A DNA stretch of 40,071 nt from positions 1 to 40,071 of IMG/VR virus record IMGVR_UViG_3300035562_000123. One strand, 5' to 3'. Positions 20,791 to 24,196 of this stretch are shown here, one piece after another (position 1 is the first letter of the stretch; each line of letters begins with the position of its first letter). A program made the translations under genes and the position numbers. The notes below the pieces were generated by a model that was given only the letters and a program-made list of their open reading frames with translations, had not been told where the DNA came from and did not search any database. The stretch is from a virus (taxonomy: Duplodnaviria; Caudoviricetes).

Positions 20791-22105
20791 TTTCGATGTC
20801 CTCGTCGGTGATGGTTGAACCCACGCCGGTGATCCGTGACGATTCCTTCAACTGCTGCGCGCCGGCTTTTAGCGTCATCAGCCCAGCGTCGACGGCTTTC
20901 GTCACCGCATCAACCGTGTTCACGGCCACGCCTGCGCGATCGGGTTCGCTCATCTGCCACAGCGGATTAAATTCGAAGGCGAAATCGTCCGGTAATGGCC
21001 GGCTGAACAGCGACATGTGCAGCACCTGCATGACTTTATGCAGCGGGCGGCGCAGCCGGCGCTCCTGCTGTGTGCTGACGTTGTCGTAGTAGTTGGAGAG
21101 GTCGGTTTCACCGGTCGAGAATCCGGCCGGTGACTGGCCGAATAGGCGCACCAGTGGAATTCCTACCGCGCCGGCGACCTGCTGGCCGAACTGCGCTAGA
21201 ACGTCGGACAGCCCTGCGAACGTGTAGCTGTGGGTCGCGAATTCGTCCTCCGCATCCATGACCGTCATCCCTTCGATACTTTGGTACTGACGGATCATGT
21301 CCATGTGGGCCATCAGCCCTTTGTAAGCAGCGGTGTTCTGCCCCATGCCCAGCACTGAACGCAGACCTTTTATCGAATAGGTTCGCAGGTGCGCTTTATA
21401 GACCAGCTGCGCGGCGCCGGTGGTGGCGCTATCGAATGCCATCAGACGATCGAAGATACGCTCAACCACCGATTGCCCCCAATCGTTCTCGGTGAGCATC
21501 TGCTGGTAAGGCAGCGTGACGCCGTCGAAACGAATGATGCGGCTGTAGTGGATTTTCCACGGGGGGATCCCGGTGGCCGTTGTCACTACCTGATAAAATT
21601 TTGGTGTGCCGAAATCCGGCCCCATGTCGGTAACGCGGTCTTGCGTGGTCGGGGTAACCATCCAGCGATCGAGGACCATCACGCCGCGGAACGCGCCCGG
21701 GCCGACCGTTTCCATGCGCATCGGCGAGCTCATGTCCTGCCCGTCAATCATGATGACGCCGATCGCGCCGCCATAGAGTCGGCCCCACTTAATCGTATCG
21801 TTCAGGCGATCCCAGAGCGCCAATTCCTCCCAGGCGTTATCCAGCTTGGATTTTTCTTCAGGCTTCAAACCGCCGGTGATCGTGATGCCCTTGCGGGTCA
21901 TGTCATCAGCGACGGCATCCACGGCCACGCCCACCAGCCAGGAGCTGCGATAGGCGTTCTCGATCTGCAGGCGGTTGCGGCTGGTCCAGTTCGGCTGATA
22001 GGTGCCGTCGCTGCTCATATTGGGCGTGCGAAGCCCCAGGCGCGCCGTGAAGTTCTGGTAACTGTCCCGGAACCACGCGCGCACCCCGTCTTTTTTTTGG
22101 CTCAT
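20642..22105 (-). CDS. Portal protein, DUF1073-like
   Basis: 487 aa; [28 protein letters not shown] motifs; follows terminase. Confidence 0.9.
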
Positions 22106-23403
22106 GCGTCTTGTCTACCCAATTGCGCCCAGGTGCCGAGGCCGTCGGAGCTGGTGATATAACCGTCCAGCGAGTAGCGCACCGCATCCCAGCAGTGGTT
22201 GTGTTTGTCGAGGACGATCGGTAACACCTCACCCGTGAGGCGGTCTGTTTTGTAGGAATAAAGCCGGGCCTCGTCGATCATGTGCTTGCAGCGCTCATGG
22301 ATGACGATTTCTTCGAAGCCGCGGAGGTAGGTGATCCCGTCCTCAACGCTGCCGGCCCATTTCGTGGCGCCGTCGATGTTGAAGCCTTGCCGCGCCATGT
22401 AGCTGATCGTTTCGGGGCGGCTGCAATCGCCATGAATCGGCCACTTGCGAGCCTCGGGGATCGAATCGTAAAACTGCGGCATTTCGTCCAGCTCAACGCC
22501 GACGCCGTAGGCTTCGTATTCGATGTAGAGTTTTCGCCCGATGATGAAGCAGCGGATCAGCGTTGAAGGGTCTTGCGAGAAGCCGAAGTCGGCGCCATAA
22601 AAAAGCCGGTCGGCCTGCAGATAGAGATCGTCAGGAAATGCCTCGACGCGATATTTTCCTGAGAAAATAACCGCCTCGCTGAGCGCCTTCGGCAGCCCTA
22701 ACCAGATGTGCTCATAGGCTTCATAGTCGACGCGCTTGCAATACTCCATTTCCTGCCGCAGCACGTCCGGGAAAAACGCGTTATCGGGATAATTGACCTG
22801 GCGAATAATGACGCCGCCGTCCGGTGGATCGACTTCGTGGCGCTTCATCAGGGTGTAGGTCGGGTCGGTGGCTTCCCGCGGGTTGTACGAAACCCAGACC
22901 TCGGAATTATTGGCGCGCACCGTCGGGCCGAGGGTGTCCCAGCTATCCTGGGAAACGGTCTGCGCTTCCTCCACCCAACAAATTTTGATGCCAAACATCG
23001 ATTTGATGGATTGCAGGTTGGTGCGCAGCCCTTTGAACGTGAAGCGGGTGCCGTTGCGCCCGGTGATCTCGTTATTTTTTACGGTGTAGAAATGGTTGAG
23101 GCCCAGGGCATAAATTTCGGCCTCAAGCAGCGCCAGCACAGAATCGCTGATTGAGTTCTGGAATTCGCGGGCGCAGAGAATGATCATCGGATCGATAGCG
23201 CCAAGGATAACCAGCGCGCGCGCAATCTCTACCGATTTACCACCGCCGCGGCCACCGTAGGTCCAGCGCCAGCGCACGGAACCGATCGGGGCGTCGTAAA
23301 GGACGTCTGTCGCCCAGTCACTGCTGAATGCGTACAGAACGCCGTCAATTATGACTGGGCCGTCGGCTTTCCCTCGCGCAGCTTTTCCATGTGAGTAGCC
23401 CAC
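22102..23403 (-). CDS. terL: Terminase large subunit, PBSX/P22-like; start uncertain, possibly expressed as TerS fusion
   Basis: Walker A GGRGGGKS, Walker B CWVEEA, YNP coupling motif, GADFG nuclease, NHCWDAVRY. Confidence 0.95.
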
Positions 23404-24080
23404 ACGTCCGCCGGGCAGTTCGCCGGGGTCACGATGCAGACCTTGCCGTAGCTCAGGCCGGCCAGATCGACATTCACCTCGGTTTTATTCGTGCTCATGT
23501 CGATGCCGGTCAGCTGCGCGGCATTCTTCACGTTCGGCGCGACCTGACCAAATTTTTTATTCTGCAGTGCCAACTGCGCAGATTTATACGACAGCTCTGC
23601 CAGGTGGCCAGCGTTGAAGGAAACCAACAGCGCAGCGTTATTGCGCAGCTCCTGCACGCGGGCTTTTACGTCCGGCCGGCTCATCAGGATTGAGGCTTGC
23701 GATTCGGCATTCGTCGGCGCGTAGCCTGCGCAAATCGCGGCCTCTTTCTGCGGCATGCCCTGCGCAATGTTCTGCGCAAATTGTTCATGCTGTGGTTTTA
23801 AAAGGCTTGGGCTTTCTTTGGCGCCCCCTTCCTCTTCGCCACCGACTTCCTGCGGCGCCTGTTTAGGTTCTGCGAGGCTTTGACCGTTTTGCGCACTCTG
23901 CGCACTGCGCACTATTTTCTGCGCACTTTGCGCATCATTCTGCGCAGGCAGTTTGATATAGCGTCGCGCGCTGGTGTAGTTAAGTCCCTTTGCCTCGCAC
24001 CATGCCTTGGGGGATATCTTCGTCTTGGCGTGCTCGCTGAGGAACTGATTCTGCAATGCCCCCCAATCCGGTTTTGCCAT
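23349..24080 (-). CDS. terS: Terminase small subunit
   Basis: 243 aa; MAKPDW HTH N-terminus, HEQFAQ...EAAICAGY motif; GGAGG RBS. Confidence 0.85.
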
Positions 24081-24196
24081 GATTCCTCCAAAATAAAAAA
24101 AGTCACCAGCCTCTACCCCACAGCGAGCCGGGTAGATTCGGTGACTTTGCTTTGCGCATTACACAACACCCGGATGGGCGCTCTGTGATGGGCAAT

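Follow-up and report, generated by a model that had tools for sequence, protein, structure and literature searches.

Conserved -1 frameshifting in tailed phages is best known from the tail chaperones. The G/GT pair of lambda uses GGGAAAG (PMC3296357, Table 1; the text of that article misprints the site), a sequence which, read as G_GGA_AAG, is reported as highly shift-prone in Escherichia coli, and a product ratio of 30:1 is given for G/GT (PMC5009743). The locus described here, the terS-terL junction of a 40,071-nucleotide stretch of provirus DNA (the window), resembles lambda G/GT in having GGGAAAG near the end of the upstream gene, and would resemble it in making the short product in excess and the long fusion as a minor species (PMC5009743, PMC3296357). 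It differs in that the terminase subunits would be joined, the downstream part being a complete 421-residue enzyme which relatives make separately, and in that one sub-lineage adds a 3' structure.

Published accounts treat the terminase subunits as separate proteins, and neither their transient association nor their stoichiometry is regarded as settled (PMC9611059). TerS forms rings of 8-12 subunits, and the C-terminus of P22 TerS binds the N-terminus of TerL (PMC9611059, PMC5850374). The P22 TerS9:TerL2 and lambda TerS2:TerL1 holoenzymes are comparable to the arrangement proposed here in that the TerS C-terminus binds TerL and TerS is in excess, but they are built from separate polypeptides with their own starts which associate non-covalently (PMC9611059). 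Among solved structures, the one closest to the window TerL in both sequence and fold, Sf6 gp2 (PDB 4IDH), is a stand-alone chain, whereas the window TerL has about 18 extra codons ahead of the aligned part, reaching back to the slippery site.

Recoding that is required to express an essential terminase has been described for Streptomyces phage Hau3 and two prophages. There, however, UUA-triggered bypassing of 7-10 nt inserts takes place inside terL at a rare codon (3/100 genes) and yields a normal TerL with no TerS fusion (PMC10732093). The bacterial IS3-family OrfA/OrfAB and dnaX systems have a -1 shift on a heptamer ending in Lys codons with a 3' stem-loop or pseudoknot, features which the present locus would share, the last of them in one sub-lineage, and IS3 elements fuse a DNA-binding protein to a catalytic domain, as would be the case here (PMC7556043). 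These are other genes, and the site at the terminase junction is G GGA AAR rather than A AAA AAG, with no conserved upstream Shine-Dalgarno (SD) stimulator. No TerS-TerL frameshift or fusion was found in the literature covered, which lay mostly outside subscription papers, and the only terminase recoding met there was the Hau3-type bypassing inside terL (PMC10732093, in the sections available). The word 'terminase' is absent from the main text of PMC3711429; PMC8065852 presents Providencia phage PSTCR3 as a temperate myovirus and makes no mention of terminase; the accessible portions of PMC12846349, PMC7556043, PMC4168068 and PMC7260188 deal with other genes. The mechanism proposed below is a known one in a new and surprising place.

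The packaging genes of the window and their junction

The window is a 40-kb provirus record of a temperate myovirus, with genes for an integrase, primase, lysozyme, TerS, TerL, portal, head and sheath proteins, a tail assembly chaperone and a tape measure protein. It is a Serratia-type myovirus prophage; the named members of the close TerS cluster come from Serratia, mainly S. marcescens, and an S. marcescens TerL is 98% identical to the window TerL across the first 110 residues. The features of the packaging genes and of their junction are as follows.

23349..24080, minus strand: terS, terminase small subunit, 243 amino acids (open reading frame; Pfam Terminase_2, E 8e-6; PHROG 51, E 3e-35)
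24085..24089, minus strand: Shine-Dalgarno GGAGG of terS (anti-SD duplex -9.3 kcal/mol, the strongest among 14 starts tested)
22102..23373, minus strand: terL frame counted from the heptamer, 423 codons (421 post-slip; Pfam Terminase_3 and Terminase_3C)
23233..23256, minus strand: Walker A motif of TerL (from the translation; 117 nt from the first base of the heptamer)
23401..23403, minus strand: GTG chosen by gene callers as the terL start, not conserved (a usable start there in 32/62 intact junctions)
23367..23373, minus strand: slippery heptamer G GGA AAG (GGGAAAR across the clade; 65/65 distinct junctions)
23361..23366, minus strand: 6-nt spacer, which varies as if coded in the -1 (TerL) frame
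23349..23351, minus strand: terS stop TAA, overlapping two terL-frame Ile codons (ATA, ATT)

The window TerL matched Sf6 gp2 with an E-value of 1e-52 over the ATPase domain, the best sequence match among solved structures, and its structural model (pLDDT 87) also had Sf6 gp2 (4IFE/4IDH) as the best fold match. TerL is an Sf6-like, PBSX-family large terminase with a Terminase_3 ATPase, a Terminase_3C nuclease and both Walker A and Walker B present. The genes at the junction are terS and terL, not a chaperone pair flanked by tail-tube and tape-measure genes as in the G/GT family. The SD of terS would be the sole point of ribosome entry for both products.

A reading made from the window sequence alone had proposed that TerS and TerL are joined by programmed -1 frameshifting, and the anatomy on which it drew was rechecked. 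The coordinates and phase which place terL in the -1 frame of terS are all correct, and G GGA AAG does lie at 23373-23367 in terS phase, five sense codons before the TAA. The 9-bp stem reported 6 nt past the heptamer (arms 23360-23352 and 23320-23312) is present, and one U-G pair can extend it; the complementarity of UCUGU (23338-23334) and ACAGA (23310-23306) exists as well. The terL frame was likewise found to have no ATG ahead of Walker A, and the GTG at 23403 no well-spaced SD. A second in-frame GTG, at 23277 and just 7 codons ahead of Walker A, does not figure in that reading.

Contigs from 3 of 4 runs, those covering the junction, had no indel there, and the arrangement is therefore not a sequencing error. 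As a chance estimate, 33 minus-strand open reading frames with 10,408 codons in all contain GGGAAAR in phase 3 times; a Watson-Crick stem of at least 9 bp at the same spacing arose in 1.0% of 5,000 synonymous recodings and at 0/361 other terL positions. The window genome alone is suggestive only, and the case rests on conservation.

Three further features were observed in the neighbourhood of these genes. Between the lysis region and terS there is a terminator-like hairpin with a long run of T (24220-24195, minus strand), which suggests that the packaging genes rely on antitermination or have a promoter of their own. Among close relatives the 5' part of terS (23820-24080, minus strand) is variable, contigs from three runs matching as far as 23820 and then diverging, a pattern which would fit an exchange of the DNA-binding region. 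At the end of the tail assembly chaperone gene (13103-12675) stand the overlapping in-phase slippery heptamers G GGA AAT and T TTT TTG (12732-12720, minus strand), with the -1 frame open towards the tape measure gene. This is an ordinary G/GT-type site, separate from the one in the terminase genes, and the phage would thus use two -1 frameshifts.

Conservation of the heptamer, the phase and the missing terL start

Viral, genome and metagenome collections were scanned and, with three annotated records, gave 228 sequences including the window, many of them repeat fetches of one contig. The clade TerS C-terminal motif was carried by 186 of the 228; 3 of these were too short and the remainder, from related prophages of Enterobacterales, gave 65 distinct junctions of 191 nt. 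An earlier set of 63 junctions, less 7 with a broken or truncated terL, left 56, from which 29 representatives below 95% identity were chosen (pairwise nucleotide identity 68-95%, median 76%). Named hosts of the junctions are Serratia, Photorhabdus, Xenorhabdus, Pantoea, Escherichia (17/5,426 E. coli genomes) and Morganella; Yersinia, Klebsiella, Citrobacter and Enterobacter are added by protein cluster membership, not by junction DNA. The isolated temperate myovirus PSTCR3 shares the junction arrangement. No more distant relatives with the same junction were found, the C-terminal half of the clade TerS forming one 50%-identity cluster, and every line of evidence below comes from this one clade.

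GGGAAAR was found in terS phase in 65/65 distinct junctions (GGGAAAG in 45, GGGAAAA in 20), so that the check on homologous junctions for the heptamer and the -1 phase was passed, and the -1 frame was open through Walker A in 62/65. Walker A was located in 59 of 63 junctions, and in every one of these it stood at the 117-nt distance from the heptamer. Among the 29 representatives, the heptamer begins at the third position of a codon which varies between Glu (23), Ala (3) and Thr (3), and yet its first base is always G (29/29); the Gly codon of the heptamer is GGA in 29/29. Both silent heptamer positions were therefore invariant, compared with 0/115 other four-fold sites in the last 42 terS codons and terL. 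On a nucleotide tree, the first six bases of the heptamer had 0 parsimony changes (mean 8.3, minimum 1, at 53 control sites), and the seventh alternates solely between A and G, preserving the X XXY YYZ pattern. The two silent invariant bases would be exactly those needed for -1 tRNA re-pairing, and the heptamer is constrained as RNA, beyond any protein constraint.

With the same phase in 65 junctions from many genera and in an isolated phage, and with terL under purifying selection and its motifs intact, the possibility that the arrangement reflects an error or a decayed gene is effectively refuted by conservation, even though some relatives are defective (the 7/63 junction loci dropped for a broken or truncated terL). 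A near-identical fusion could also arise if RNA polymerase slipped and inserted one base in some transcripts. A run of at least four A after GGG is present in 20/65 junctions, but in the window and the other members of a group of 45/65 no run in the heptamer exceeds three bases, and tracts prone to polymerase slippage are much longer than that. The X XXY YYZ pattern and its phase are a requirement of tRNA re-pairing and argue against polymerase slippage, and the one RNA-run contig which crosses the junction has no insertion, although contigs drop rare variants. Polymerase slippage was accordingly judged very improbable.

Under frameshifting on the ribosome, the preferred reading, the spacer would be translated in the -1 frame, and its pattern of change is as expected if it is read in that frame upstream of the Ile codons and of any alternative start. 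By position, the six spacer bases had 10, 9, 1, 1, 7 and 2 parsimony changes; the TerL-frame wobble positions account for 9 and 7, compared with 1 and 2 at the terS-frame wobble positions, and the first base, a second position in the TerL frame, is also variable (10 changes). A -1-frame stop abuts the 5' side of the heptamer in 5/65 junctions and lies 9 nt before it in 12 more, while the terS stop follows the heptamer by 15 nt in 54/65, 18 nt in 10/65 and 0 nt in 1/65. With the -1-frame stop directly 5' in some relatives and the terS stop directly 3' in another, the shift is confined on both sides. A stimulatory SD, as in dnaX and IS911, lies 9-14 nt 5' of the slip; 13/29 representatives carry a GGAG at such a spacing (11 nt), and the window has none.

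No start position for terL is common to the clade. The commonest candidate, at the position of the window GTG 23403, is present in 32/62 intact junctions, and 10/62 have no ATG, GTG or TTG at all ahead of Walker A. Database entries for TerL in the clade have many different annotated starts. Two E. coli records place the start 20 codons past the heptamer, and the GenBank TerL of PSTCR3 (L079, 3688-3874; MW057855.1) starts 62 codons past it, beyond Walker A, and the deposited protein is therefore truncated. For comparison, 15 outgroup loci were picked from 41 without the clade motif. An ATG 25-40 codons ahead of Walker A was present in 14/15, 11 of which form an anti-SD duplex at least as stable as -5.8 kcal/mol, and no in-phase GGGAAAR was found in the 15; the start codon and ribosome-binding site of an ordinary two-gene terminase are thus present in 14/15 outgroup loci and were not found as a shared feature of the clade. 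In the TerL tree (midpoint root; 15 vs 9 rows) the frameshift clade forms one branch with support of 100/99, and a single gain from an ATG-bearing ancestor is therefore the simplest reading.

One sequence labelled as outgroup (L077, 1170-1400) sits on a long branch next to the clade and has neither an ATG 15-40 codons before Walker A nor GGGAAAR; this single sequence may use a CTG start or another recoding event.

Gene-calling pipelines assume that TerL is made from an ordinary alternative start, at GTG 23403 or at a GTG or CTG further downstream. This was considered scarcely credible, less so even than polymerase slippage: the start codon which stands in an open frame at the 23403 position in 32/62 intact junctions is missing or severed by a stop in the other 30, 10/62 have no ATG, GTG or TTG to offer, no start position is shared by the clade, and initiation at GTG 23277 would delete a predicted helix at TerL residues 19-26.

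The most probable of the alternatives, though still an unlikely one, is translational coupling, in which ribosomes would restart at the near-cognate ATA/ATT overlapping the terS TAA and give a separate, low-level TerL; this could also accompany frameshifting, and the two can coexist within one gene pair according to PMC3711429. The terS stop overlaps Ile-Ile codons in 64/65 junctions (15 or 18 nt past the heptamer) in the manner of coupled stop-start overlaps, so that weak re-initiation is conceivable, and a start there would retain everything that can be aligned with Sf6 gp2. However, no conserved ATG or GTG was found close to the terS stop, only these near-cognate Ile codons, and no SD lies at a usable distance from them. 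The second Ile codon is free to vary, being ATT in 16, ATC in 9 and ATA in 4 of the 29 representatives, one junction ends terS right after the heptamer, away from the Ile codons, and in the window these codons are in or beside a stable stem. Coupling also leaves the invariant heptamer 15 nt upstream and the TerL-frame pattern of the spacer unexplained.

RNA structure downstream of the heptamer

The structural elements considered in the window are listed below.

23351..23360, minus strand: stem 1, 5' arm (100% paired in 13/13 of the window sub-lineage; 5-bp core pairs in 29/29)
23312..23321, minus strand: stem 1, 3' arm (window folding and alignment pairing)
23323..23349, minus strand: upper part of a long-hairpin fold, the rival of the pseudoknot (window MFE and centroid; 95% of cells paired in the sub-lineage)
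23334..23338, minus strand: stem 2 core, 5' strand UCUGU, also the apical loop of the long hairpin (invariant in 13/13, including two four-fold wobble sites)
23306..23310, minus strand: stem 2 core, 3' strand ACAGA (invariant in 13/13, one of its positions being a four-fold wobble site; not retained by the remaining 16)

Nested folding of the window favours one long hairpin (-36.3 kcal/mol, z -3.8). The 29 representatives were split into a monophyletic sub-lineage A (n=13, including the window) and 16 others. In sub-lineage A, the 10-bp stem 1 is 100% paired, the consensus fold is a single long hairpin beginning 6 nt past the heptamer (-26 kcal/mol), and each member folds better than its own synonymous recodings, with z between -2.0 and -4.8. 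Within this sub-lineage terL codons 11, 12, 20 and 21 are invariant at their four-fold sites, compared with 1/95 background sites, while the neighbouring codons vary normally. Three of these four sites fall in the UCUGU/ACAGA pair and so support a second stem in sub-lineage A. In the other 16 representatives only the 5-bp core of stem 1 pairs, with a G-C to A-U change in 3, and no silent-site constraint is seen downstream. The 9-bp stem of the sequence-only reading thus stands as a fully paired element in 13/29, including the window, and is reduced to its 5-bp core in the other 16. The heptamer, and not the structure, is the element common to the clade.

The proposed H-type pseudoknot is the least secure part of the earlier reading. 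The 5-bp core of its stem 2 is invariant at silent sites in the 13, but it has no covariation there, one pair of the 4-bp extension fails in 6/13, and the rival hairpin is equally conserved; stem 2 pairing in the other 16 representatives is 62%, and the loop lengths are unusual, with 1 nt between stem 1 and stem 2. Pair counts over all 29 were weak for both folds, with 77% paired for the pseudoknot (8/500 shuffles as high) and 81% for the long hairpin (58/500), and the folding tools used cannot score pseudoknots. On geometric grounds the two folds cannot coexist, and they may therefore be alternative conformers.

A third fold (85% paired, 0/500 shuffles as high) was dropped, as it had been chosen post hoc after alignment and its sub-lineage has no silent-site constraint. 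Given all 29 with long flanks, RNAalifold returned another fold, which had no compensatory changes and was not accepted, and Rfam gave no match at the junction.

Among the relatives sampled, four defective ones (L103, L105, L106 and L107) retain terS and the heptamer and lose terL a few codons beyond the 3' arm of stem 1. In L105 the sequence continues into the -1-frame C-terminus of the tail chaperone, and at least two different deletions among the four begin near the foot of the hairpin. In L072 and L093 (Morganella psychrotolerans), terS is apparently frameshifted upstream of its C-terminal third with the heptamer and terL intact, which is probably a defective copy or an assembly error.

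The predicted TerS-TerL fusion and the packaging motor

An in-phase X XXY YYZ heptamer, an open -1 frame with no conserved start and constraint at the nucleotide level together argue for programmed -1 ribosomal frameshifting at G GGA AAR as the means by which terS and terL are joined. We give a probability of about 0.85 to this reading, for which the phase, the heptamer, the lack of a conserved start, the silent-site constraint and the single origin of the clade have direct support in the sequences compared. The product in the window would be a TerS-TerL fusion of 659 amino acids, the length predicted earlier, here computed as 238 + 421 residues, and this fusion, of which TerL forms the C-terminal part, is likely the sole form in which TerL is made.

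By analogy with lambda G/GT, ribosomes would start at the terS SD, most would stop at the TAA and release free TerS, and a minority would re-pair tRNA-Gly and tRNA-Lys from GGA AAG onto GGG AAA and continue through terL. The heptamer alone would probably give a shift of a few percent (lambda, about 30:1), and in sub-lineage A the structure 6 nt downstream, be it the long hairpin or the pseudoknot-like alternative, probably raises or tunes it. The frameshift would in this way fix the ratio of TerS to TerL. Fusion chains would enter TerS rings through their TerS part and tether TerL to the DNA-recognising ring, the covalent link replacing the non-covalent contact of the P22 type between TerS C-terminus and TerL N-terminus, with TerS kept in excess. 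Since the fusion joins these two termini, each ring would hold a few tethered TerL units.

Conservation is strong over the final 30 residues of TerS, right up to the heptamer, as is expected for a functional tether. The linker region was modelled at low confidence, including TerL residues 1-13 post-slip; the model of the TerS C-terminus (pLDDT 49) was too poor to use, and a complex prediction for the TerS tail (60 amino acids) with the TerL ATPase domain gave a score of 0.02 and a mark of 0.32 and was counted neither for nor against the fusion. Searches for a natural in-frame fusion returned none. There were 0 among 164 candidates when TerS residues 110-243 were compared with proteins of 427-2000 amino acids (a weak search); a TerS profile run against 1.84 billion representatives gave 41 matches, none longer than 254 amino acids; and the 31 clade-level TerL matches among the 120 matches listed were all of 479 amino acids or fewer.

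It is also conceivable, if improbable and slightly more so than coupling, that frameshifting does take place but yields a precursor which is cut in the linker, so that the motor works with ordinary free TerL and the frameshift just sets the ratio. One protein of the phage resembles a head maturation protease (PHROG 530/12864), the linker is the region of low model confidence, and the motors characterised to date work with free TerL (PMC9611059, PMC5850374); against this, no cleavage site was identified and the TerS tail is conserved right up to the heptamer.

Taking the uncut fusion as the preferred product, we lean slightly towards a motor in which each ATPase-nuclease subunit has a TerS chain covalently attached, a frameshift of the Gag/Gag-Pol kind sets the number of TerL units per TerS ring, TerS stays on the motor during translocation, and a hairpin/pseudoknot switch or host tRNA-Lys modification tunes the ratio. 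On the frameshift reading, TerL is at present annotated with arbitrary starts in prophages of Serratia, Photorhabdus, Providencia, Yersinia, Escherichia, Klebsiella and others, in one case past Walker A. If true, the obligate fusion of TerS and TerL, in a proportion laid down genetically, would represent a new packaging-motor architecture and a naturally tethered holoenzyme for structural work, in which the TerS:TerL ratio, and whether TerS leaves the motor, would become testable by point mutation.
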